This document shows positions 3,661 to 57,992 of a stretch of DNA of 64,000 nt, piece after piece. The stretch lies in the sequence record PP681140.1. The stretch is one strand, 5' to 3'. The translations under genes were made by a program, and so were the position numbers. The notes beneath the pieces were generated by a model that searched no databases, was not told the DNA's origin, and was given only the letters and a program-made list of their open reading frames with translations. This stretch comes from Enterobacter phage EC152. The number at the start of each line of letters is the position of its first letter. Within the stretch, counting starts at the first letter, position 1.

Positions 3661-4227
3661 ATGAATAACAAAATCACTTTCAACGATCAAGACGTAGCCG
3701 TTTTTAACTTCCTGAAAGAAAAAGGGATTGAATTTAAAGCAGTACACGGCGGAGTCAATAATGATCCTAGTTGGGAAGCGGATCTGTTTTTCGTGTCTTT
3801 TGAGCGTAACGGCAAAATGTACCGTTCAGAATTTAAAACTGGTACAGGTCACCGCGTAGGCCGTCATAGTGGCTTAACCTCTCAGGATAAAAAAGAGCTT
3901 GATAAAGTTGGCGCACAAATCGCCATCGTAGATCAAAAGCACTGGACACGCGACGATTACAAGCGTAATGATAATAAAGCTATGTCTTTTGGTTATCGTG
4001 TTTACGTTGCGACACCTTGCGCCGCAAACGTGCTTTACTGCCTGCTGTCTGATATGTCTTTTGGTGATGAAACTCATGCTGATTTTTGCGCTAATATGGG
4101 CTATGATGAGGACAGCCGCAAAGGTTTAGAAATGTATCTCGAATGTCAGAAAGTAGGACAGGAGATCCGCAAAATCTTTACAGGTGAGGAACTGGAAGCC
4201 CTGCGCGAAATGTTAGAGGATTATTAA
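3661..4227 (+). CDS. Hypothetical early protein, 188 aa
   Basis: Promoter TTGACT-17-TAAGAT at about 3566-3594; Shine-Dalgarno AAAAGGTAAA. Confidence 0.75.
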   Translation: MNNKITFNDQDVAVFNFLKEKGIEFKAVHGGVNNDPSWEADLFFVSFERNGKMYRSEFKTGTGHRVGRHSGLTSQDKKELDKVGAQIAIVDQKHWTRDDYKRNDNKAMSFGYRVYVATPCAANVLYCLLSDMSFGDETHADFCANMGYDEDSRKGLEMYLECQKVGQEIRKIFTGEELEALREMLEDY

Positions 4228-4230
4228 ACC

Positions 4231-4578
4231 GTGTTTAAAATCCTGTTTTTGGTGGCTGCTGCTGCTATCTACTGGAAGATCCCCGCTAGACTATGGCGGG
4301 GAGTTCTCTGGATTTACTACGAATACAGGATCGGCAAAGTGTATCACTATATAGAATATAAGTTTCACGGGAACCATTACCACACCCGGCGATCCGGGGC
4401 ATTAAATGATCTTGAGGGTAACGGGCTATTGTGTGAGGTGAAAAAGCGAGGCGGCAAAATCACTTATCACAAAGAAGGAACAAAAGAGCAAATCACCGAG
4501 ATCATAGAGTGGCGAGCTAATGAGCTAGCAGAAAAACAAGGCCGGATCATTCAACATGCACACAACAAACGAAAATAA
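4231..4578 (+). CDS. Hypothetical protein, 115 aa, with an N-terminal hydrophobic segment
   Basis: ORF follows the previous gene by 3 nt. Confidence 0.6.
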   Translation: MFKILFLVAAAAIYWKIPARLWRGVLWIYYEYRIGKVYHYIEYKFHGNHYHTRRSGALNDLEGNGLLCEVKKRGGKITYHKEGTKEQITEIIEWRANELAEKQGRIIQHAHNKRK

Positions 4579-4592
4579 AACGAGGGTTTAAA

Positions 4593-4796
4593 ATGCGAAA
4601 TATTGAGAAGATGACAAGCAAGCGTGATCGCCTGGCTTACGGTGAAGTAAACGAGCGCCGCCAACGTAACGACAAACTACACAAGCCGGAAAGGGTCGCT
4701 AAAACCTGGACGCCTGACCGTTATGATCCAAACCTCAATAAAAGGTTAGCGGATCGCAAACGTGCTTTACAGTGGCAAGCCGTACAAAATGACTAA
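4593..4796 (+). CDS. Hypothetical basic protein, 67 aa
   Basis: ORF with Shine-Dalgarno AACGAGGG. Confidence 0.55.
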   Translation: MRNIEKMTSKRDRLAYGEVNERRQRNDKLHKPERVAKTWTPDRYDPNLNKRLADRKRALQWQAVQND

Positions 4797-4800
4797 ACAA

Positions 4801-4829
4801 AGGCCGGGATAATTTCCCGGCTTTTTTCT
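4801..4829 (+). terminator. Rho-independent terminator (GGCCGGGATAATTTCCCGGC followed by a T6 run)
   Basis: GC hairpin followed by a T-run. Confidence 0.75.
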
Positions 4830-4858
4830 ATGCAAAAAAGTGAATTTAAAGAGTTCTC
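4828..4858 (+). promoter_or_regulatory. Copy 1 of the conserved motif cTATGCAAAAAAGTGAATTTAAAGAGTTCTC
   Basis: Near-identical copies at 5005-5035, 8935-8964, 10818-10848 and 10995-11020, with a variant at 9103-9140. Confidence 0.5.
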
Positions 4859-5004
4859 AGGCAGGCAATGCACTTGCCAGGGTTCGACATTGAAGCGCTT
4901 AGAGAGGCTTACAGGAGCTTTAAAGCGGTATCACGGCACCGCGCCACGCTCAAAAGGCCTTAAATTTAGTCACAAGGTGAAACTATTTGCATATGATTGA
5001 ATGC

Positions 5005-5035
5005 TTATGCAAAACAGTGAATATTGTAAAGATTT
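5005..5035 (+). promoter_or_regulatory. Copy 2 of the TATGCAAAA-AGTGAAT motif
   Basis: See copy 1. Confidence 0.45.
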
Positions 5036-5125
5036 AATAATTTTCTTGCGTCCTGGCGTGAATCTGTTAATATTTAACACGTAGGGCGACATAGTGAAGC
5101 CCACACAATCAAAAGGTAAATTATC

Positions 5126-5416
5126 ATGTGTAAAGTAATGAATGCTCTGACTAAAAACGCCCTAGAAAACAAATACCTGGGCAAAATGGTTTATCATAAT
5201 TATGGTCAAATCGGGTTCGGTGTGGTCACCGGGATCGATGACCGTGATCCCACAAAATTACGTTTACGCGTGAAGTTTACCCGCAATAATACCCCGGCGC
5301 ATATCCAGAAATATGACAACCGCGCGGATCGTGTTCGTTGCCTCCTGCCTCAATCGGTCACCGTGTCCCGTGTGCGTTATGAGGATTACAACCGCACAAA
5401 CCAGATCAAGAAATAG
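5126..5416 (+). CDS. Hypothetical early protein, 96 aa
   Basis: Promoter-like TTCTTG-17-TAATAT upstream; Shine-Dalgarno AAAAGGTAAA. Confidence 0.7.
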   Translation: MCKVMNALTKNALENKYLGKMVYHNYGQIGFGVVTGIDDRDPTKLRLRVKFTRNNTPAHIQKYDNRADRVRCLLPQSVTVSRVRYEDYNRTNQIKK

Positions 5417-5492
5417 CTTGCAATCTGCGCCGCTTATGGTATCTTTATTCATAGGCGGCAATAATGCCACCACTTAAAGAGAGGTAAACAAA

Positions 5493-5594
5493 ATGTTAGA
5501 TTATACAAACCTTTGGTGTGTGGCTGCTCTTGTATCTTTCATCGTTGCGGCTTGCTCTGTGGTCGCTATCCATATTATTTTAGAGGATCGTTAA
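5493..5594 (+). CDS. Small hydrophobic peptide, 33 aa (MLDYTNLWCVAALVSFIVAAC...), membrane
   Basis: Shine-Dalgarno AGAGAGGTAAA; not in the ORF track because it is under 60 aa. Confidence 0.55.
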   Translation: MLDYTNLWCVAALVSFIVAACSVVAIHIILEDR

Positions 5595-5595
5595 T

Positions 5596-5814
5596 ATGTT
5601 CGGGTTTATCGTTATGGCCTGCCATATCTCGCTAACTTCAATGAAGTTAGATTGTAGCTGGGATGTTAAAAAAACATTCCAAACAGAACAGGCTTGCAAC
5701 GTGTACGAAAACGAATACACGCTAGGCAAAGGCGAGCAGATCGGGGTCTGTGATGAGTTAGATCCTGGCGTTAAAGAAGGCGATAAACGCCCTATTCTCA
5801 CCCTCAAAAAGTAA
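5596..5814 (+). CDS. Hypothetical protein, 72 aa
   Basis: Start overlaps the upstream stop (TAATATG). Confidence 0.55.
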   Translation: MFGFIVMACHISLTSMKLDCSWDVKKTFQTEQACNVYENEYTLGKGEQIGVCDELDPGVKEGDKRPILTLKK

Positions 5815-5823
5815 GGGTTTACC

Positions 5824-6009
5824 ATGTTTGAAGTATTCGCCGGAATGTGTTTTTATGCCGCTATGGGCTTGCAACGTTGCGATGATTTCATCGTTGAATC
5901 ATACGACGATCAATTAACCTGTGAGATCGTAGCCAATGACTACCGCACGGATCGCCGCTGGATTAATCCCGCTTGCATCCCATCGCCGGAAGTTGAACCA
6001 ATGCCATAA
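5824..6009 (+). CDS. Hypothetical protein, 61 aa
   Basis: ORF begins 10 nt after the previous stop. Confidence 0.5.
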   Translation: MFEVFAGMCFYAAMGLQRCDDFIVESYDDQLTCEIVANDYRTDRRWINPACIPSPEVEPMP

Positions 6010-6016
6010 AATAAAT

Positions 6017-6045
6017 TTGACAACGGGGAACCGTTGATCAATAAT
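6017..6045 (+). promoter_or_regulatory. Sigma70-type promoter TTGACA-17-AATAAT
   Basis: Read directly from the sequence. Confidence 0.55.
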
Positions 6046-6093
6046 TACCAGACAAGGCCGGGAGCGGTTCCCGGTCACCTGGTGAGGTGAATC

Positions 6094-6210
6094 ATGAAAG
6101 GTTACCAAGTAGAATACACTACCGAAAACCCGGTTTACACCGAAGCGCGGATCATGTGTCGTCTGGTGTGGTTTTTCGTGATCTTCCTGCTGTTATTATC
6201 TTTATTCTAA
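6094..6210 (+). CDS. Small membrane peptide, 38 aa (MKGYQVEYTTENPVYTEARIMCRLVWFFVIFLLLLSLF)
   Basis: Preceded by promoter, hairpin 6056-6076 and GGTGAGGTGA Shine-Dalgarno; hydrophobic C-terminus. Confidence 0.55.
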   Translation: MKGYQVEYTTENPVYTEARIMCRLVWFFVIFLLLLSLF

Positions 6211-6225
6211 AACGAGGTTTTAAAA

Positions 6226-6567
6226 ATGGAACTGGCAAATAAATTTTTCTTCCTGGCTGGCGTATCTGACAAAGCAAAATGTGATTTTCGTCGTTTCGAT
6301 GATAAAACATTGTTGCGTTTTTGTCATGTTAATGACACTGTAAACGCTGATCGCCTGGATATCATGATCCGCACGGAAAACAGCATTGATCACGCTTCAC
6401 AAAGACCTTGCAAGGCGCATTATGTATCTTATCAGCTTGAAAGTGTGAAGGGTTATGTAAAACAGGCTGATAGCCTGCCGATCCGTGATGCTCTGGACGT
6501 TTTCGCGGTAGTTGTTGAGATTGTTAATGATGTTTTTCCGGTTGACTCTGAAAACCAGATCGGCTAA
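6226..6567 (+). CDS. Hypothetical early protein, 113 aa
   Basis: Shine-Dalgarno AACGAGGTTT. Confidence 0.7.
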   Translation: MELANKFFFLAGVSDKAKCDFRRFDDKTLLRFCHVNDTVNADRLDIMIRTENSIDHASQRPCKAHYVSYQLESVKGYVKQADSLPIRDALDVFAVVVEIVNDVFPVDSENQIG

Positions 6568-6620
6568 AGTATTCTAACAGGCCGGGGATTGTCCCCGGTC
6601 ACAATAGAAAGGTAAATATT

Positions 6621-6854
6621 ATGGCACGTTACACTAAAACCGTGGATATCTGGGACGCTCAAACCAACGTTGCAAAATTGCAGCCGGGGCAATGGGTAGA
6701 GGCTGGCAAAGGCGGTGATCGCGGGATCTTCTGTGGTGTAAAACGCTCTGGATCTGTGGTTGTTGCCTGGAAGAATAACGCAAGCAACCATAAGCGCGGC
6801 GGGTATCGTGGCTATATTTCCGATCTGTTTTCTTATGCTAAAGTGTGGGCTTGA
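6621..6854 (+). CDS. Hypothetical early protein, 77 aa
   Basis: Hairpin 6580-6600 followed by Shine-Dalgarno GAAAGGTAAA. Confidence 0.75.
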   Translation: MARYTKTVDIWDAQTNVAKLQPGQWVEAGKGGDRGIFCGVKRSGSVVVAWKNNASNHKRGGYRGYISDLFSYAKVWA

Positions 6855-6856
6855 TT

Positions 6857-7189
6857 ATGAAAAATAAAAATGTTTATTGGTCTTCCTCGTGCGGTCGCCT
6901 TTGTCTGATTTTCCGTGACCGTGACCAGGTAGAAGAGATCGCCCACTCTGGGGACTGTGAAGCCTCCACCGTTGAAGCCTTGCCCTATTTCCGGGACGGC
7001 TTACAGTTTAGCGCCTACACCGATCAAATGATCCGGGATTACCTGGCCGAAACCGGGATCGAGCGTGAAGGGGTAGACGGGATCGACAACATGGATCGCC
7101 ACACCCTGGAAATGTACCTGTTATGGATCGCGGCTTGCGATATGCTGGACGTGTTCAACATTGGCGATGATTACGGGGAAGATGAATAA
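6857..7189 (+). CDS. Hypothetical early protein, about 110 aa (MKNKNVYW...)
   Basis: The ATG overlaps the upstream stop; the track start at 6845 is a GTG. Confidence 0.6.
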   Translation: MKNKNVYWSSSCGRLCLIFRDRDQVEEIAHSGDCEASTVEALPYFRDGLQFSAYTDQMIRDYLAETGIEREGVDGIDNMDRHTLEMYLLWIAACDMLDVFNIGDDYGEDE

Positions 7190-7205
7190 AAACGCTTGCA
7201 AGCCA

Positions 7206-7234
7206 GGTGCGGATCGGTTAATATCTTTTTGAGG
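7206..7234 (+). promoter_or_regulatory. Sigma70-type promoter TTGCAA-17-TAATAT
   Basis: Read directly from the sequence. Confidence 0.55.
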
Positions 7235-7275
7235 CCGGGGAATACCTCCCCGGCAAGCCAGAAAGGTAAACAAAA

Positions 7276-7665
7276 ATGCAAAATTTCATCACTATCACCA
7301 ATAACGATAAACTGCAATCTCTGATCGGTATCCTTAACGATGTTTCACCGTTTATCGTTAAAAATCTTTACGCACATTTGAAAAATGTTAAACCCGCTAT
7401 TTGGTCTGCTCATTGCTATGACCAGGACGAAAGCGCGGCGGCATACATGATCGAAATGTTAAAAGATAGTATGCAACTTTGTTTATCTCAAAGCGTTATT
7501 AATGAAGTTGATAGCCGTTTATCTCTGGCTATTGAATACCAGGTGCAAGCAATGTATAATCAGTTAGACATTGAAGAGCAGCAAGATCAGGATTCATTCT
7601 GGGATCGTGCTGATGCTCAAAGCGCCTTTGATGACCGTTTAGCAATGTATGCTAACGAATACTAA
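7276..7665 (+). CDS. Hypothetical early protein, 129 aa, acidic
   Basis: Hairpin 7233-7254 followed by Shine-Dalgarno GAAAGGTAAAC. Confidence 0.75.
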   Translation: MQNFITITNNDKLQSLIGILNDVSPFIVKNLYAHLKNVKPAIWSAHCYDQDESAAAYMIEMLKDSMQLCLSQSVINEVDSRLSLAIEYQVQAMYNQLDIEEQQDQDSFWDRADAQSAFDDRLAMYANEY

Positions 7666-7715
7666 ACAAAACAAGGCCGGGGACGTTCCCCGGCATAATC
7701 TGAAAGGTAAAGCAA

Positions 7716-7940
7716 ATGTTAAAGAATCAAACCGGGCAAACTGAATTTTTACGCAACCTTATCGCTGGTGAAAAGGCTGTATGGTTCTGTGAAGGTGCAA
7801 ACGTAGATCCGGAAATGCGGAAAATGACCGCCACCGTGTGCAAGGCGAAACTAGGCTTTAAAATCCGTCAATCAAAAGCCCTGATCGTTACTCCTGATTC
7901 TATCCCGCAAGCAATCATCATTATTGAGCGTATATCATGA
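7716..7940 (+). CDS. Hypothetical early protein, 74 aa
   Basis: Hairpin 7675-7694 followed by Shine-Dalgarno GAAAGGTAAAG. Confidence 0.7.
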   Translation: MLKNQTGQTEFLRNLIAGEKAVWFCEGANVDPEMRKMTATVCKAKLGFKIRQSKALIVTPDSIPQAIIIIERIS

Positions 7941-8164
7941 AAAAAGTAATTTTTGATAACAAGAAAAACACGGTAACCGCTCAAAAGGTCGGGGAGTATA
8001 TCGAACTTTCGGATCTGTATAGTGACGCGCCGATCCGCTTGTCACCTGCTGAATATAAAAATGCTGATTTGGTTAAACATGTTGTCGCTATGGAGTTCGA
8101 ATTTTTCGAATATCTAGCCTCTTTTGAGGATGATTTTAATAGTGATGGGCTTTACGGCGCATGA
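7937..8164 (+). CDS. Hypothetical protein, 75 aa
   Basis: ATGA start/stop overlap with the upstream gene. Confidence 0.6.
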   Translation: MKKVIFDNKKNTVTAQKVGEYIELSDLYSDAPIRLSPAEYKNADLVKHVVAMEFEFFEYLASFEDDFNSDGLYGA

Positions 8165-8306
8165 TCATTTACGTCAACGTTTTAAACGGGAATCGTTACC
8201 GCTGGCGCGGTTCCCGTGTCCTGGCTCTGATGTCTGGTGAATGGGTTCAAAGTCAGCACTTACGCCCCGCCGATCTCTCACATTTTCCGTTTATAGGTAT
8301 CAAAGA

Positions 8307-8783
8307 ATGAAATATGAAATCACCCCGGAAGATATCAAAACACGCGCCCTTGATAGCGCCCGTTACACCTTAACAAAGCGTGAAGGCCTGCAACTATTTT
8401 CAATCTGTTTTATTCATCCTGATGATCCTGATTTTCAATCTGATCCGGTTGAGTTCTGGGCTAGTAGCTGGGAAACGGCTTATGATGAGCTGATGAATAA
8501 TGTAAACACTTTCGAATCTTACGGCCTGTCAAGTTTTAGCCAGACAGATCGCCCCCTGGAGGATGAGAACGTTAGAGCGTGGATCAACCACTACAACGCC
8601 CTTTATAACCTCGTGTTTATTCATGGGGAGAGTAAAGAAGAGATGATCAAGAAAGCGCTAGACTTTAATGATCATTGTTCGTATGTACTCCGCAAAATGT
8701 GCGAGCTAGTGGACGCCCTGAGAAGTGCGGAGAGGTTCGACGGCGGATCGGTCTATCGTGAATCAATGCACCGTTACAGATAA
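8307..8783 (+). CDS. Hypothetical protein, about 158 aa (MKYEITPED...)
   Basis: The long ORF runs 8241-8783; an internal start at 8307 fits a weak Shine-Dalgarno better. Confidence 0.5.
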   Translation: MKYEITPEDIKTRALDSARYTLTKREGLQLFSICFIHPDDPDFQSDPVEFWASSWETAYDELMNNVNTFESYGLSSFSQTDRPLEDENVRAWINHYNALYNLVFIHGESKEEMIKKALDFNDHCSYVLRKMCELVDALRSAERFDGGSVYRESMHRYR

Positions 8784-8934
8784 GCGCTAAAATCTTTACA
8801 ATTCCGGGGCTTGTTTTCTGTCCCGGTTTTTGTTATTCTTTTGTGGAAGCGGCAACGATGGACACCGGAGGAAACACACCGGAGGTGCCTGTCATTCCGG
8901 TAATGAGAATTACTATCAACAACCCTCAAAATCC

Positions 8935-8964
8935 TATGCAAAATAGTGAATATGGCGAGATCTC
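8935..8964 (+). promoter_or_regulatory. Copy 3 of the TATGCAAAATAGTGAATAT motif; a TGAGAAT half-site lies at 8903-8916
   Basis: See copy 1. Confidence 0.45.
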
Positions 8965-9151
8965 CGCTAAAATGGGCTAGGGTACAGCCTGGACGCAAAA
9001 CCGCTTAAAACGCGTTACAGGACGTTTAAAGGCTATATAAAAATAGCTTGACACGCAAAAACGGCTAAAAAGTAATTTCACCATGAAATCAATTGCATAG
9101 CGTTGCATAATCATTCAAATAGTGAATAATGTAAAGAAGTGTAAAGAGCTA

Positions 9152-9180
9152 TTGACGTGGTGATCTGCCTATAGTAATAT
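9152..9180 (+). promoter_or_regulatory. Sigma70-type promoter TTGACG-17-TAATAT
   Basis: Read directly; a second candidate TTGACA at 9048 has a 19-bp spacer. Confidence 0.55.
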
Positions 9181-9236
9181 TTATCTCGTAGGGCAAACAA
9201 ACGAAATCACACAAAACAGACTAAGAGGTAAATCAA

Positions 9237-9602
9237 ATGTTAAACGCTAAAACTGTTGCTCATGTTGGTTGGGATTCAAACGCGTATGAGGGTGAGTGGT
9301 GCGAAGATTACCGCCGTACTGAATGGGCTTACAAAATCCAGATCGAACTGGTAGACGGTTCACGCTTTTACCTTGATCAATCCTTACTGACTTCTGAAAC
9401 TCATGATTTTGAAGAAATCAAAGCTATTCAGGATCGCCGTGTAGCTCGCATTGAAAAACATTTGGCCGCTGGCGGTTCACTGAATGAAAAACACTGGTAC
9501 GAAACCGATCCGGCTTATGGCTCTGAAGCTTATCAGCGCCTGGATGATATGGGAGAGTTTAAAGCCCGTGAAGAAAAAGAGTTTCAACTGACCGGACGTT
9601 AA
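9237..9602 (+). CDS. Hypothetical early protein, 121 aa
   Basis: Shine-Dalgarno AAGAGGTAAA. Confidence 0.75.
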   Translation: MLNAKTVAHVGWDSNAYEGEWCEDYRRTEWAYKIQIELVDGSRFYLDQSLLTSETHDFEEIKAIQDRRVARIEKHLAAGGSLNEKHWYETDPAYGSEAYQRLDDMGEFKAREEKEFQLTGR

Positions 9603-9678
9603 CAGATTAAAAGGCGCTTGCAATGGTGAGCGCTTTTTGATAAATTAATGTCTCACCAAACAAATGAGGTAAACGGCA

Positions 9679-10002
9679 ATGACTAAAACAGAATTTTTCG
9701 CAATCATCACCGATCATCTGAAAAGCCTTAACGGTCAATTTAACGCTTTCGGTGAATATGTCGCCTTTGACGTTCCAAAATACACCGCCGCCGATCTTGC
9801 TCCTTATGAGTTCCACGAAGATCCGGAAAATTACGCTAAATGGAAAGCAGAAAACCCGGATTATCCCTGGGTAGCTCATGCGTCAGGCTATACTATGAAA
9901 AATTGCTGGTTAGTCGGCCTTATCAATCATCGCTCATATGAAGCCGCCACCAAACAAGCGAAGATTTTCGCACGTTGGATCGCTGAATACCAAACCAAAT
10001 AA
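9679..10002 (+). CDS. Hypothetical early protein, 107 aa
   Basis: Hairpin/terminator 9612-9638 then Shine-Dalgarno AATGAGGTAAAC. Confidence 0.7.
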   Translation: MTKTEFFAIITDHLKSLNGQFNAFGEYVAFDVPKYTAADLAPYEFHEDPENYAKWKAENPDYPWVAHASGYTMKNCWLVGLINHRSYEAATKQAKIFARWIAEYQTK

Positions 10003-10051
10003 ACCCACCGGGGGCGCTAGTCGCCCCGCTATCATATGAGAGGTAAACAAA

Positions 10052-10417
10052 ATGGATCTTAAGAAAATCAATCTTTTAGCCCTGAAAAAGGGTGATATGC
10101 TGTTTCGTGGGTCTTTGTGTGAAGTCCTGGAAATATCAGCGCCGTTTATGCGTGGCTATGGTTATGATAACCATTATTACAAGGCCGAAACGGTAGCGAT
10201 CAAATGTCAAGCCGTATATGATTACGATGTTAACTATTCAAAAGAAAGCGGCAAGCCATTAACGCCCCGTGAATATGTTTTTGATTATCCGATTGAATCA
10301 CAAGTGATGATCGTTACATCTGGCGAAACGGTCACCGTGACAAGCGCTACCGGGAATTTTGACGATAAAACAGGTCATTATCTGTTACCCGGTCAAACAA
10401 TTAATGTTATTGAGTGA
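10052..10417 (+). CDS. Hypothetical early protein, 121 aa
   Basis: Hairpin 10008-10027 followed by Shine-Dalgarno GAGAGGTAAAC. Confidence 0.75.
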   Translation: MDLKKINLLALKKGDMLFRGSLCEVLEISAPFMRGYGYDNHYYKAETVAIKCQAVYDYDVNYSKESGKPLTPREYVFDYPIESQVMIVTSGETVTVTSATGNFDDKTGHYLLPGQTINVIE

Positions 10418-10423
10418 TGACAA

Positions 10424-10687
10424 GTGATTAACCTTGTTTATCATGTGAGCAAAACCAACATTAGCCGGGCTATCTGCCTGGCTTGCTTGTTTGCTGTTTT
10501 GTCAAATGTTTTTTACGGTTGGCTGGCCTGCCTTGTGTTAAGTGACGCAACCGCCCAGACAGTTAACACCATGATCGATGTTTTGCAGCTTGCTTTATAT
10601 TGTGGTGTAAAGCTGTACAGATTTAAACGCCTGGACCGTTACGATCTACCTTTCATCATTGGCGGATCACTGGCTATTATGTTGTAA
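10424..10687 (+). CDS. Hydrophobic membrane protein, 87 aa, probable GTG start
   Basis: Strongly hydrophobic ORF directly after the previous stop. Confidence 0.5.
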   Translation: MINLVYHVSKTNISRAICLACLFAVLSNVFYGWLACLVLSDATAQTVNTMIDVLQLALYCGVKLYRFKRLDRYDLPFIIGGSLAIML

Positions 10688-10690
10688 GCT

Positions 10691-10714
10691 AGGCCGGGAT
10701 TATTCCCGGCTTTT
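10691..10714 (+). terminator. Rho-independent terminator ending the plus-strand early block (AGGCCGGGATTATTCCCGGCTTTT)
   Basis: GC hairpin followed by a T-run. Confidence 0.7.
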
Positions 10715-10786
10715 GCATATCATAACCCACACCAAACCACAACCCAAAATCTTTACCCGCTTTTATGTTGGTTGCAATATCGCAAC

Positions 10787-10801
10787 TGAGAATTATTCTC
10801 A
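10787..10801. promoter_or_regulatory. Perfect 15-bp palindrome TGAGAAT-T-ATTCTCA (operator-like)
   Basis: Same half-site as at 254-272 and 11716-11745. Confidence 0.5.
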
Positions 10802-10817
10802 CCAATCCCGTTGGCAA

Positions 10818-10848
10818 TTATGCAATAAAGTGAATTTAAAGAGATCTC
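10818..10848 (+). promoter_or_regulatory. Copy 4 of the TATGCAATAAAGTGAATTT motif, followed by the palindrome AAAGAGATCTCTTTAAAG (10839-10856); copy 5 lies at 10995-11020
   Basis: See copy 1. Confidence 0.45.
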
Positions 10849-11109
10849 TTTAAAGACATACAACGGCAAGCCTAACAGATAAACCCTCTCAAAACGCGTT
10901 ATATTGCGTTTAATCGTGTATCATTACCCGCCTTTGACTCACTCACACCCCAAAAATGATAACGCAGGTTATCAAGTGAATAAACACTGTGTTTTTATGC
11001 AAATTGAGTGAATACGAAGCAAAAACCCTGAAATGATAACTTTTCTCATCTAACCTATTGTGTGAACTGTCTTTTTTGAGCATAGAAATCATTTTCTGTC
11101 AATAAAAAT

Positions 11110-11360
11110 ATCGTTCGCGTAATCGTGGGGAGTGGCGCGAGCGGAGCGAGCGACACAATAACACGAAGGGTAACTCAAACGATAATAAATATCGTTTTCG
11201 TTCGCGTTATCGTGGCTCGTTAGCGCCTAAGCGTTAACAGACAGGATGACTAGAATGATGAATAATTAACAATGCAACTATTACATAGTTGAAGTATTTT
11301 ATAACCTCGCCACGATAACACCGATTAGCTGATCGCTAATCGCCCTCGTGTTATTGTGTC
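11110..11360. repeat. Nested inverted and direct repeats. A 15-bp perfect inverted repeat GACACAATAACACGA sits at 11152-11166 and 11346-11360. The direct repeat TATCGTTCGCGT(A/T)ATCGTGG sits at 11110-11129 and 11197-11216, with its inverse CCACGATAAC at 11311-11320. The palindrome GATTAGC-tgatc-GCTAATC sits at 11323-11341.
   Basis: Read directly; the region is non-coding and lies where transcription polarity switches. Confidence 0.6.
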
Positions 11361-11715
11361 GCCAGGTTATGAAGATCAAAGGCATTTAATTAGCCTTTAA
11401 TGGTTGACAAACCATGATTAATAGAACTGTAAACCAGGCCGCTGGCCTGCTAATTGCTGGTTTTCTTGAGCATGAAAAGGTGTGCGAAGCTGGCTAACTG
11501 TCAAGTGTTTTATTGATAGGAAAAGTCTATTAAAGCCAGGCGTAGCAAGGCCTGATGATAACTATTCGCATATGAGAATGATAAAGATTGTATGCCCAAA
11601 ACCATGTAATTGCTAAACACATTTTTCCCTCTGTGTCAAGCTTTTTATGACAGATTTACAAAATATTTTCCATTTGAGAATGGTTTTCATTTCGAAACTG
11701 AAATCGAAATCGTAT

Positions 11716-11745
11716 TCAGAATGATTATCATTTGCATTCTCATCG
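11716..11745. promoter_or_regulatory. Operator-like element AGAATGATTATCATTTGCATTCTCATC (palindrome AATGAT-T-ATCATT plus a GCATTCTCAT box)
   Basis: Same boxes as at 254-296. Confidence 0.45.
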
Positions 11746-12252
11746 ACAAAACACCCCACAAAGTGAATAATAACAGGTGTAAACTGTCATGGTAGTAACA
11801 TGTGGCAGGCTATTGGTTGTTATGTGGTATGGTTCGCTGATGCAATGATAACATATGTGACTATATGGCCTGTCGCCCGGTGATCTGTGGTGCGCATAAC
11901 GTGTATTATGTTAAATGGACTCATTCACACAAATATAAGCAAGTCAAGAGCAAATCGTGCGGTAACAGGTGTAAACTGTCACATTGCTAATAGTTGCACT
12001 TGTAATCATTAGTTTCGTTGCGAAATCATCATGCAATCATCGTGCCAAGAACTCGATGGGGTCTCGTGGTCAGACCTCTCAGATATTTTGTAAAGATCCT
12101 TGACAACCCGGAGGGGCTGTGATTGTCCGTCTAACACATCAGACATAGAGATTGCGCCCAGAAACACCCTGTCCCTTGGCCTTGCCACCCTCCGGGATTG
12201 TGTGGGATATTTTCGTGCCAGAACACATAAAGAGAGGGGCCTGTTTACGTTT

Positions 12253-12282
12253 CCCTCCGGGCGGGGGAGGGGGTCATTTTGT
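12253..12282 (+). terminator. Strong GC hairpin CCCTCC-gggcggg-GGAGGG followed by a T-rich tract (terminator-like) inside a GC-rich structured non-coding stretch
   Basis: Read directly; surrounding ORFs lack a ribosome-binding site. Confidence 0.3.
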
Positions 12283-12434
12283 GGGGAAATACATGTTAAT
12301 GAAATGTACATACAATCACGCAGGGGTGGTGTTTGTTTCGTGCAGCCTCAGCACCTATTGCTGTGTAAAGAATAGCAGGGCTGACTCTTCAGGTCAACCC
12401 ATTTGTGTGGTTTGTGTGTTTAATCGGAGCTATA

Positions 12435-12791
12435 CTACCACCGACGATATCTGTTGTGTTCCAACTGAGCTTCTCTGATCATGCACCAGAGCACTCGACT
12501 GTCGTAGCAACCAAGATCTTTAAGCTCTTGTTGTGTGGCTCTCAACTGTTCGTAGAAGTGCAACTTCAGGTCGCCACTGTTTATGAGGATAACCCCAAGA
12601 AGTGATTTTGCATAGTCCCACAACCACTTCACTCTTCGCTCTCTGGCTTCAGATTTCTTGTGTGGGTAGTTCTTTATGTGCGCCCGTTTTGCAGGCGCTT
12701 TTACAACCTTCTGGAAAGACATGTGCTCTCCTATTTTGTAAGATGTGTCGTTTGATAACGGATATAGTCTGGCGAATGCTCTCGCTTCCAT
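12435..12791 (-). CDS. Hypothetical protein, 118 aa, basic
   Basis: Last ORF of the long leftward gene cluster. Confidence 0.5.
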   Translation of the reverse strand: MEARAFARLYPLSNDTSYKIGEHMSFQKVVKAPAKRAHIKNYPHKKSEARERRVKWLWDYAKSLLGVILINSGDLKLHFYEQLRATQQELKDLGCYDSRVLWCMIREAQLEHNRYRRW

Positions 12792-12970
12792 TTCTCAATT
12801 CCCTTCAGGCAGTCCTTCTCTGAGGAGAATTTTAATTCATGCCAGATCCCGTGGTCTGCCTTTGGGACGTGATTCCACACAGACCAGAAGAAAAGAAATG
12901 GAACCTTGACATAGGCGTACCACACATCTGTAGCTGTGTCGTGAACTATCTTGAACTCATGCTCTTTCAT
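12731..12970 (-). CDS. Hypothetical protein, 79 aa
   Basis: ORF on the minus strand. Confidence 0.45.
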   Translation of the reverse strand: MKEHEFKIVHDTATDVWYAYVKVPFLFFWSVWNHVPKADHGIWHELKFSSEKDCLKGIEKWKREHSPDYIRYQTTHLTK

Positions 12971-12980
12971 TGTGTGCTCC

Positions 12981-13163
12981 TTATAAAATCATGGTGACAA
13001 CCATAGCCTGTTGTGTGGTCAACAGCATGGCAGTATTGGTGGTTCCTGAACCGGAAGAGGGTGTGTCGTCATCGTCGTCATCGTTACTCAAAAACACCCA
13101 GAGGGCCAATCCGATAAGGACCGCAACAACCAACAGCAGGACCATAAACACTACAATTTCCAT
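12981..13163 (-). CDS. Small membrane protein, 60 aa, with an acidic DDDDDD tail
   Basis: Hydrophobic N-terminus; a second 37-aa transmembrane peptide ORF lies at about 13167-13280. Confidence 0.45.
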   Translation of the reverse strand: MEIVVFMVLLLVVAVLIGLALWVFLSNDDDDDDTPSSGSGTTNTAMLLTTQQAMVVTMIL

Positions 13164-14409: not shown

Positions 14410-14660
14410 ATATCTACCTCAAAAGCAACAATTATAAAAGCGAAGAACATCCCCAGCGGAGTGCCTAGCCAGCAGGCAGCAACAAGGGGGATGAGCATCT
14501 CCATGAAGGAGTACCTGTCCCAAATCTCTGCGAACGAAAGTCCGTCTTCCGACATCAGAATGTAAATCATACCAGGATACATCAGGAGAATATAGACCCC
14601 GATGACACACAGGATGGTTCTACCCGCAGTGACTAGCTCGTTTTCATCACAAAGCTTCAT
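14406..14660 (-). CDS. Membrane protein, 84 aa
   Basis: Hydrophobic. Confidence 0.55.
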   Translation of the reverse strand: MKLCDENELVTAGRTILCVIGVYILLMYPGMIYILMSEDGLSFAEIWDRYSFMEMLIPLVAACWLGTPLGMFFAFIIVAFEVDI

Positions 14661-15046
14661 AGGAAATCCCAGGCATCATTCCAGCCTTCATCGTACTCAG
14701 TGTTTACGACACCAAGGGGACCACGGTAACCGTCTGGTGGCACTGACCCGGTGTGGTGCTTAATGCTGTCGTTCCATCCACGGGCATATTCCTCTGACCG
14801 CCTTCCCTCATAGAGGTGTGTCGTTTCATACGCCTTCTGAATTTCCTGTAGAGCAGCGATCAGTTTAGGCAAATCTGAAACATCACACAACAGGATAAAA
14901 TCGTCTTCATCCTTCCTGTCAGGGGAGTAGTTTGGTTGACTGAGGCTCACAGTTCGGTGAGAAGGGGAGTACACCCCCGTTCCGGTAATGGTTACATCAG
15001 CGACAGTGCCTTCAATAGCTTTGATCAGATCATCAGTTATTCTCAT
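14657..15046 (-). CDS. Hypothetical protein, about 130 aa
   Basis: Track ORF 14657-15187 trimmed at the upstream neighbour. Confidence 0.5.
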   Translation of the reverse strand: MRITDDLIKAIEGTVADVTITGTGVYSPSHRTVSLSQPNYSPDRKDEDDFILLCDVSDLPKLIAALQEIQKAYETTHLYEGRRSEEYARGWNDSIKHHTGSVPPDGYRGPLGVVNTEYDEGWNDAWDFL

Positions 15047-15269
15047 CTTTGTCTCCGAAAAGAAGGATGAACTCAACAGCAGCATTCCATCCGGAGCAGT
15101 ACGGATCGACACCACGGAGTTTTCCGGCATTGCTTTTGATGTTGTGCCTTTCCATAAGGCAGGCGCACCAACCCGCACCAGCCTCAATCATCTCCGAGGT
15201 TAACTGGAATCGGGTCTGGCGTATCCACCACGCCTGGAATTCTTTGGTGTGCATATCTAGGGTATTCAT
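15033..15269 (-). CDS. Hypothetical protein, 78 aa
   Basis: ORF on the minus strand. Confidence 0.5.
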   Translation of the reverse strand: MNTLDMHTKEFQAWWIRQTRFQLTSEMIEAGAGWCACLMERHNIKSNAGKLRGVDPYCSGWNAAVEFILLFGDKDENN

Positions 15270-17771: not shown

Positions 17772-18020
17772 TCAGGAGAATTTCTTGCGAAAGTAAAGAC
17801 GTGCAGCTTTACGGGCCTGACCCTCTCGCTTGAAAAGCTTGTCCTTGAATCGCCATTGCCCTGTGTCGGTGTCTTTCCACACCTCGTGGTTAATGAACTC
17901 CAGAATATTTTCACCGCCCATAGCGTTCTCCTTTCCCCACTCTTCTTCTGGGAGATACCAGTTATCAATAGAATCCCCGTGGATCTCTTTCAGTAGCTCA
18001 CGATAATCACGACTTTGCAT
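17772..18020 (-). CDS. Hypothetical protein, 82 aa
   Basis: ORF on the minus strand. Confidence 0.5.
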   Translation of the reverse strand: MQSRDYRELLKEIHGDSIDNWYLPEEEWGKENAMGGENILEFINHEVWKDTDTGQWRFKDKLFKREGQARKAARLYFRKKFS

Positions 18021-57503: not shown

Positions 57504-57599
57504 TAGCCCTCAGAGCCTCTGAGTGGCCCTGTATTGAATTAAATGGGTGTAGGGAACCCAAGTGTACCACCACACCATTAAAACCTCTTACAACGCTTC

Positions 57600-57992
57600 T
57601 CAGAGCGTTATACGAATCTCACTGAGATCCACCACACAATTATTACTCTCGATATGTTCCACTGTCAAGTCCTTATACCATACCACAGTGACATTTCTTT
57701 GTCTTAGACGACTACGTAATGACGTGAGGTAGTCACCGAACACTTCCTGCTCAGACTTACCATCTGGTAAAACCACACACACATTTTGTTCTTTCATTGA
57801 TTCATGAAACACATCACGAATCAACATGAGCCTTGACTTCTCCTCGTCAGTCTGTTCAGCTTTACGACGAGGTTTACCACACACCATATCACCAATATCT
57901 TTTGTTTGTTTACTTGACAACATTACAATCTCCTTTAACAATACGAGCATTCTACATGAACAAAATCTGAAGTCAACCCCTTGACAGCACAT
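57600..57992 (-). CDS. Hypothetical protein (130 aa ORF; probable start MLSSKQTK)
   Basis: First gene of the leftward cluster. Confidence 0.45.
   Translation of the reverse strand: MCCQGVDFRFCSCRMLVLLKEIVMLSSKQTKDIGDMVCGKPRRKAEQTDEEKSRLMLIRDVFHESMKEQNVCVVLPDGKSEQEVFGDYLTSLRSRLRQRNVTVVWYKDLTVEHIESNNCVVDLSEIRITL

Follow-up and report, generated by a model that had tools for sequence, protein, structure and literature searches.

A repeated non-coding module of constrained length as candidate regulatory DNA in the early region of Enterobacter phage EC152

The 64,000-nucleotide stretch of Enterobacter phage EC152 analysed here (sequence record PP681140.1; hereafter the window) raises the question of why a motif of about 30 bp recurs in its larger intergenic gaps. 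A preliminary description of the sequence had listed six copies, arranged as pairs about 170 bp apart in three intergenic spaces (IG1, IG2 and IG3), and had proposed that they represent either a phage-specific middle or late promoter class or the site of a DNA-binding regulator. All six copies are present, their positions agreeing within a few bases, and the start-to-start distances in the three pairs are 177, about 176 and 177 bp. The 30-bp copies are thus real, but the functional unit appears to be a module of about 200 bp that had been overlooked: the copies are the two ends, here called A and B, of a repeated ~196-bp non-coding module, three of which are found in the window. From sequence comparison we tentatively read this module as architectural, protein-binding regulatory DNA that may double as a recombination junction.

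The three intergenic spaces align with one another over about 330 bp, extending beyond the motif alone, and the three ~196-bp units form a near-gapless alignment. When a profile hidden Markov model (HMM) built from 14 diverse modules was used in an nhmmer search of the window, three strong matches only were obtained (4829-5023, 8935-9128 and 10819-11014; E values from 1e-37 to 1e-46). The motif TATGCAAAANAGTGAAT occurs exactly or with one mismatch at 4829-4845, 5006-5022, 8935-8951 and 10819-10835, always on the + strand, and at this stringency (≤1 mismatch) 100 dinucleotide shuffles gave no match. Allowing ≤3 mismatches gave six matches against 0.99 expected; two of the three-mismatch matches, at 18005 and 45320, lie inside open reading frames (ORFs) and look like chance matches. 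The motif copy at 10996-11013 carries a one-base insertion, and the copy previously set apart as a variant is TCATTCAAATAGTGAAT at 9111-9127. Degenerate palindrome matches at 15238, 18004 and 45320 were rejected as being at chance level, the two inspected (18004 and 45320) lying inside ORFs. In the complete genome of Escherichia phage vB_EcoM_LNA4 (LNA4; 147.6 kb) the motif is confined to the corresponding early loci, with none in the other ~140 kb. The modules of the window and the elements that surround them are as follows.

4802-4827, + strand: intrinsic terminator (GGCCGGG..CCCGGC plus a T-run) closing the upstream operon and abutting the A copy of IG1
4829-4858, + strand: A copy of IG1, TATGCAAAAAAGTGAATTTAAAGAGTTCTC (motif search, repeat family, shuffles)
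4829-5023, + strand: module IG1, ~196 bp from A to B (nhmmer E=1.5e-46, HMM positions 1-195)
4988-5023, + strand: B-end hexamer cluster of IG1, TGCATA-N12-TATGCA-N6-TGAATA, with the B copy at 5006-5023
5025-5073, + strand: A/T-rich TGTAAAGA block, then a sigma70-type promoter, (C)TTGCGT ... TAATAT, serving the gene at 5126-5416
8804-8831, + strand: intrinsic terminator, left edge of the IG2 cassette (sequence read)
8832-8934, + strand: conserved non-coding stretch upstream of the A copy of IG2 (alignment of ten orthologous cassettes)
8935-8964, + strand: A copy of IG2 (motif search, shuffles)
8935-9128, + strand: module IG2 (nhmmer E=1.4e-44)
9094-9128, + strand: B-end hexamer cluster of IG2, TGCATA, TGCATA, CATTCA, TGAATA, including the variant copy
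9130-9180, + strand: two TGTAAAGA blocks, then a sigma70 promoter, TTGACG-N17-TAATAT, serving the gene at 9237-9602 (promoter scan)
10692-10714, + strand: intrinsic terminator after the last + strand early gene, left edge of the IG3 cassette (sequence read)
10819-10848, + strand: A copy of IG3, with one mismatch (motif search, shuffles)
10819-11014, + strand: module IG3, with the B copy at 10996-11013 (nhmmer E=5.6e-37)
57551-57613, + strand: weak partial module interior (HMM positions 35-96) without A or B (nhmmer E=0.028; membership uncertain)

The two ends of the module are related and yet not equivalent. The A end follows the consensus TATGCAAAANAGTGAATWTrrnGAGATCTC and forms a contiguous, asymmetric and sharp-edged block of about 29 bp, in which the core TATGCA-N6-TGAATW is an imperfect inverted repeat of the hexamer TGMATA and is followed by GAGATCTC. 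It is this last element, the AAAGAG-TCTC tail which the preliminary description gave to the motif as a whole, that is restricted to the first (A) copy of each pair, since the second (B) copies run on as WWTGTAAAGA instead. The B end has the composition TGMATA-N12-TATGCA-N5-8-TGAATA followed by one or two TGTAAAGA blocks, and the composite pattern at the B end of IG1 is an exact match where 0.03 would be expected by chance. The full cassette then has the order terminator, optional conserved upstream stretch, A, variable body, B, A/T-rich TGTAAAGA block, strong sigma70 promoter and conserved leader. As a separate observation, the intergenic interval 57551-57613 contains the hairpin AACGCTtctcagAGCGTT.

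With respect to its relatives, the segment 4500-11400 of the window is 99.8% identical to LNA4, 96% to Cronobacter phage GAP31, 93% to Escherichia phage 4MG and 84% to Salmonella phage PVP-SE1, all four of which are placed in Seunavirus, Vequintavirinae, in records with a taxonomy line; judged by these identities, the source of the window is a Seunavirus. Small + strand ORFs follow one another up to 10687 and give way to a 1.3-kb non-coding stretch and then to converging - strand ORFs, a layout that fits the early-gene region as described for rV5-like phages (PMC3606486, PMC7344957). The profile found 51 modules in the loci fetched, all of them in the early region and all co-oriented with the early genes. 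Two to four modules per genome are present in the Seunavirus members GAP31, 4MG, PVP-SE1 and FENT2 and in the Mydovirus members Mydo, VIK251, K18PH07C1, BIS47 and KNP2; modules are also found in Erwinia phage Hena1 and several IMG/VR contigs, and complete ones in AV124 (Mydovirus) and in Klebsiella phage FBKp34 (Stephanstirmvirinae). A central block of the module, CCGCTTAGAATGCGTTTTAGAGCGTTTTAAAGGGTATTGAC, occurs alone in the Ounavirinae member Pectobacterium phage Wc4 (locus L084, 1469-1551), where it is opposite in orientation to the flanking genes. In FBKp34 (locus L085, 346-392) a related CTCTTAGAAT..ATTCTAGGGG palindrome carries a terminator annotation. BLAST with whole modules returned no rV5-type Escherichia phages, and in Vequintavirus proper the module is either missing or diverged beyond detection. 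An IMG/VR scan with an IG2-specific pattern, aimed at more orthologues, gave 5 loci only. A search for the extended A block in 185,579 bacterial species, each represented by a single genome, gave only three chance-like matches, in unrelated taxa, and we conclude that the block was not copied from any extended host sequence. A literature search found no published description of the motif or the module. The preliminary description had regarded absence from the rest of the genome and from related phages as a sign of local duplication; the motif is indeed absent from the rest of the genome, but it is strongly conserved in the related phages, so it is no mere local duplication.

The comparison of length and identity was made on 37 distinct complete modules belonging to eight paralogue groups. 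Of the 37, 35 have their B start exactly 177 bp beyond their A start (at position 178), and the first B-end hexamer begins at position 159-160 in all compared modules. The mean between-group identity is 0.87 for the A block, with a near-invariant 17-nt A core across the eight groups, 0.68 for the central block, and 0.42 and 0.32 for the interior segments V1 and V2. The interior thus approaches saturation with substitutions and has no insertions or deletions, which we take as evidence for selection on its length and not on its sequence. Among the features read from the alignments, this fixed length of 177 bp with a near-background interior is the strongest single clue to mechanism; it amounts to about 17 helical turns, by arithmetic and not by measurement. 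The first B-end hexamer is TGCATA or TGAATA depending on the group, and the invariant A copy shows no compensating change. Such uncompensated variation at the third base fits degenerate protein half-sites and not an RNA helix. The module is often better conserved than the genes that adjoin it.

In the window, each module is preceded by an intrinsic terminator (4802-4827, 8804-8831 and 10692-10714). The hairpin at 4802-4827 was flagged on the minus strand also by the terminator scan and looks bidirectional, and a terminator abutting the A copy as in IG1 is likewise found in GAP31, 4MG and the Mydoviruses. The stem of the IG2 terminator shows a compensatory change, CCGGGG..CCCGG versus CCAGGG..CCTGG in Mydoviruses. 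Between this terminator and the A copy of IG2, the conserved stretch 8832-8934 holds the palindrome TGAGAATTACTATCA and two direct repeats of ACACCGGAGG (8862-8871 and 8876-8885), which are kept from Seunavirus to Mydovirus, and the IG2 module itself shows 87-97% identity across these two genera. As sigma70-type promoters we accepted -35-like and -10-like hexamers 16-18 bp apart, the -10 hexamer having A as its second base and T as its sixth. Such a promoter lies within 40 bp of B start in two of the three modules (5045-5073 and 9152-9180), and a conserved leader with CGTAGGGC lies downstream of both; in IG2 the promoter hexamers and the transcribed leader TCTCGTAGGGCAAACAAACGAAA are almost invariant. 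When every alignment column was scored on both strands, the sigma70 site after B was the sole promoter-like site at a fixed column, and the FBKp34 record annotates the homologous site as 'promoter'. The A and B copies themselves contain no sigma70-type -35/-10 hexamer pair, which bears out the earlier statement that the motif is distinct from sigma70 promoters. Promoters inside the module, on either strand and including the minus-strand TTTACA-N17-GATTAT at 9135-9107, are not kept across modules and were discarded. The cassettes mark the starts of early transcription units; IG3 opens onto the 1.3-kb non-coding region and has no gene directly after it.

The cassettes are also portable. The IG2 cassette (8789-9209), which begins just past the stop codon upstream and ends shortly ahead of the ribosome-binding site that follows, has 86-93% identity to FENT2, Mydo and VIK251, and the genes flanking it give no DNA-level alignment with these three phages; in Mydo, where the adjoining proteins were compared directly, they are unrelated to those of the window. 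The homology breakpoints of the window with six phages (5024, 5120, 8785/8789, 9209, 9240, 10691 and 10818) are cassette or module edges. These cassettes are long, resemble one another and are direct repeats, which is why otherwise unrelated early-gene cassettes are joined at them. LNA4 lacks window positions 8641-9130 (490 bp; locus L006, 44338-44346), so that the IG2 A copy and body are gone; the endpoints of the deletion are two copies of GTAAAGAAG, and it takes the 3' end of the ORF at 8241-8783 and most of the IG2 module and spares the promoter.

In T4-like myoviruses, small terminator-plus-promoter units known as promoter-early stem-loop cassettes (PeSLs) have been described (PMC2839356; PMC4122927). 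The present cassettes resemble PeSLs in being repeated terminator/promoter units between small early genes of a large lytic myovirus, in being conserved where the flanking genes differ, and in their position at gene-content junctions. They differ in that a module of ~196 bp, with a near-invariant end motif and a fixed length of 177 bp, is inserted between terminator and promoter, and in that only two to four intergenic spaces per genome carry it; the likeness refers to the layout as described. The PeSL is the closest known kind, and the present cassette is a new form of it with a large extra module. Between the small early genes, at 6055-6092, 6579-6616, 7233-7270, 7674-7711 and similar positions, there are also repeats of a stem-loop plus ribosome-binding site, AGGCCGGGG..CCCCGG...GAAAGGTAAA, which are PeSL-like cassettes of the plain type that lack the 196-bp module.

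On neither strand does a reading frame stay open across all modules. Frames that begin at the ATG of the A copy run for 2 to 56 codons and have differing ends (IG3 reads ATG CAA TAA), and a small protein starting there was ruled out because no frame is shared by all modules. GAP31, FENT2 and Mydo annotate a small ORF over the doubled ACACCGGAGG stretch upstream of the IG2 A copy; in Klebsiella phage KNP2 (locus L016) and the near-identical Mydovirus rows the same frame ends before the A copy. The 'hypothetical proteins' annotated across these spaces (GAP31_069 and three FENT2 ORFs) are probably not genes.

We suggest that the module would act as DNA and not through a gene product: a sequence-specific protein, probably encoded by the phage, would bind at the A copy and at the hexamer cluster of the B end, and the body would serve mainly as a spacer of fixed length. 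Held 177 bp apart, or about 17 turns, A and B could be joined in a loop or in a wrapped nucleoprotein complex beside the early promoter, which might thereby be switched up or down. Operator pairs that act by looping or wrapping are well known from the lac, gal, ara and deo operators and from the phi29 p4/p6 switch between A2c and A2b/A3. In common with these, the module has two related sites a near-integral number of turns apart beside a promoter, a spacer that is constrained in length and free in sequence, and sites built of inverted hexamer half-sites. It differs in that a cognate protein is not recognised, in that A and B are unequal with variable half-site spacing in B, and in that some modules are not beside any recognisable promoter. 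A wider formulation, possible but with more against it than for it in our judgement, is that together with an early protein the invariant ~29-bp block and the 177-bp length-constrained body form either a specific nucleoprotein complex or a structured RNA, which would control the hand-over between early transcription units, and that the element is mobile among at least three subfamilies.

Several results weigh against protein-binding regulatory DNA. The B copies are far less conserved than A and have a variable 5 to 8 bp between their two halves, which makes the ends non-equivalent; a 10-11 bp periodicity of conservation along the module was not significant. Pfam recognised no DNA-binding domain in the 30 early ORFs near the modules. 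The regulator site proposed in the preliminary description is kept as the best available, putative reading, and the protein that binds it may also come from the host. The Mydovirus IG3-type modules lack an A copy, and since LNA4 is a viable isolate without the A copy and body of IG2, each module is individually dispensable. In the loci L009, L017 and L037, the ribosome-binding site of a conserved small gene comes directly after B, a promoter there and a terminator ahead of A are both missing, and the module must therefore be transcribed. Finally, a 7-bp hairpin just before the B end covaries, with 83.7% of cells paired against 18-52% when the pairing is slid and with four pairs changing on both sides (6-13 of 500 shuffles do as well), and folding energies are mildly below those of shuffles (mean z about -1.8 on the + strand and -1.3 on the - strand), which together leave room for an RNA role. 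A known host site was sought by eye among consensus sequences: CRP, IHF, Fis, ArgR, CytR, DnaA and sigma54 gave no convincing fit, and PurR/LacI-type and MarA sites gave none. ArgR was discarded as a conserved feature, since only about 6 of 15 representative modules have an ARG-box-like TGMAT-N4-ATKCA at their B end.

If the module instead works as RNA, it could be a transcribed leader or a non-coding RNA of ~180-200 nt whose conserved 5' part is the A block, for example as a protein-binding or processing site; this we regard as doubtful, and the same holds for the more specific proposals that such an RNA influences the next gene in cis, through read-through transcription, stability or translation, or that it works in trans, as it might against a host defence. 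The common orientation of all 51 modules with the early genes, the transcribed modules of L009, L017 and L037, and the covarying hairpin with its low + strand folding energy would all be accommodated. In the ten orthologous IG2 modules, moreover, substitutions avoid two short stems and fall in the loops of these hairpins, and a small stem pairs on the + strand via G-U, G-C and A-U. A precedent exists in the rV5-like phage PhiTE, whose pseudo-ToxI is a functional non-coding RNA with tandem 36-nt repeats that mimic an antitoxin RNA (PMC3475682). It shares with the module that a non-coding intergenic sequence in a related subfamily is functional (here a candidate function), and differs in that the copies here are 177 bp apart and bracket a non-repetitive body, with no apparent similarity to ToxI. 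Yet RNAalifold gave no consensus structure for 14 diverse modules, and the structures predicted group by group disagree, with an inconsistent strand preference and the minus strand folding better in two groups. Rfam gave no match at E<=1 for window positions 4000-13000. Four structures were tried and rejected: a central hairpin (columns 73-79/88-94) shows no covariation, a hairpin with the loop TTAGARR fails to hold across the alignment rows, a V2 hairpin is not maintained in the orthologous IG2 modules, and a closing helix between TATGCAA of the A copy and TTGCATA at column 159, possible in many modules, meets TGAATA in three groups with A uncompensated. A strictly fixed length with a near-random interior would be unusual for RNA helices, the modules of the window lie between terminator and promoter and would be transcribed by read-through only, and the Wc4 central block runs opposite to its flanking genes. 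On these grounds an RNA role is less well supported than a role as DNA.

Recombination could account for the cassettes without any dedicated factor, if these PeSL-like units were kept similar by homologous recombination or gene conversion among co-infecting phages and the A/B motif were hitch-hiking. The island of 86-93% identity between unrelated genes, the breakpoints at the edges, the number of two to four modules per genome and the mosaic modules (L041_10005, where the body is present but A and B are both missing, and the Mydovirus modules of IG3 type, which have no A) are all what one would expect, and T4-like PeSLs behave likewise (PMC4122927). It appears nevertheless unlikely as the whole explanation, because it cannot alone account for the near-invariant 17-nt A core across eight groups with interiors of 32-42% identity, nor for the fixed A-to-B distance, and paralogues within one genome are not homogenised. 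Less probable still is that the A block represents a phage-specific promoter class, read by a modified host polymerase or with a phage factor and driving rightward transcription through the module. In its favour, the block is sharp-edged and asymmetric with a constant orientation to the genes, and it stands directly after a terminator in one module type; like the T4 MotA-dependent middle, TATAAATA late and T7-type 23-bp promoters, it is bounded, oriented, of about 29 bp and distinct from sigma70 hexamers. Those classes, however, have many copies upstream of middle or late genes and known factors, and the middle or late class put forward in the preliminary description finds no support here, where the motif is absent outside three early spaces and no conserved promoter-like site follows A. 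A ~147-kb genome has two to four copies, and genes for replication or structure have none in their vicinity. Neither within the A block nor beyond it is a -10-like element conserved, and the promoters that come after the B copies are ordinary sigma70 ones. Pfam recognised no polymerase, sigma-like factor or activator in the 30 early ORFs, among which ORFans could hide a new one. Relatives are reported to encode neither an RNA polymerase (CB7 paper, PMC7344957) nor homologues of the T4 late factors gp33/45/55 (rV5 paper, PMC3606486), and the late-gene motif proposed for rV5, TggTAaAAtA, is different (PMC3606486). We consider it very improbable that the modules serve as origins of replication or as priming sites, of which a genome would have several, as T4 does, with initiators binding at A and B and the promoter supplying a primer or opening the DNA. 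Multiple intergenic modules by early promoters, repeated end hexamers, the fixed geometry and the opening of one copy onto a repeat-rich 1.3-kb non-coding region would suit origins. An A/T-rich unwinding element is not conserved, V2 being A/T-rich in IG2 and G/C-rich in IG1, Pfam recognised no initiator gene among the 30 nearby early ORFs, one module is dispensable in LNA4, and the rV5 authors were unable to place an origin from skew (PMC3606486).

The surroundings of the modules contain other features. A second family of palindromes, TGAGAATnATTCTCA / TGATAATCATTCTCG, occurs at 256-270, 285-299, 8904-8918, 10787-10801, 11034-11048, 11556-11570, 11675-11689 and 11716-11730. At ≤3 mismatches there are nine matches against 4.5 expected, a number reached by 2 of 100 shuffles; eight of the nine lie in non-coding spaces, and two are just upstream of A copies. 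They resemble the enterobacterial Fur box (GATAATGATAATCATTATC) and, if real, would suggest iron-responsive control or titration of Fur by a lytic phage. The early gene blocks converge on the 1.3-kb non-coding region (10715-12008), of which parts are kept in Mydoviruses. The region contains a 20-nt inverted repeat (11150-11169 / 11343-11362, 95% complementary and 173 nt apart) and the direct repeat TAACAGGTGTAAACTGTCA (11771-11789 and 11963-11981), gave no Rfam match, and could be home to new RNAs or an origin. Directly upstream of module IG1, the ORF at 4593-4796 matches Pfam Phage_1_1 (T7 gene 1.1 protein; E=2e-10), the sole family match above the Pfam curated cut-off among the 30 scanned ORFs. 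For the ORF at 14657-15187 on the - strand, Pfam gives the PARP catalytic domain as a weak match below threshold (E=0.005); should the match be real, the ORF could encode an ADP-ribosyltransferase like those with which T4 modifies host RNA polymerase. Positions 1-230 look non-coding on reading the sequence, with repeats such as GGTTCTCGATCGAyTTTTC and T runs.

For transcription control in these phages, only sigma70-like promoters and a tentative late motif have been published (PMC3606486, PMC7344957). Little is known about temporal control in rV5-, PVP-SE1- and phAPEC8-like phages, several of which are being considered for therapy or biocontrol. In early regions that are otherwise hypervariable, few stretches of DNA are as well conserved as the module, and its near-invariant block of 17-29 bp, set in a fixed 177-bp geometry, provides an experimental handle, for which the natural LNA4 deletion is a ready-made control. 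For annotators, the small ORFs called across these spaces, such as GAP31_069 and those of FENT2, are probably spurious. If the wider formulation given above is true, the element is mobile in Vequintavirinae, Stephanstirmvirinae and partly Ounavirinae, all large lytic enterobacterial myoviruses. With the module, the PeSL idea of mobile regulatory cassettes that shuffle early genes reaches beyond the T4-like phages.

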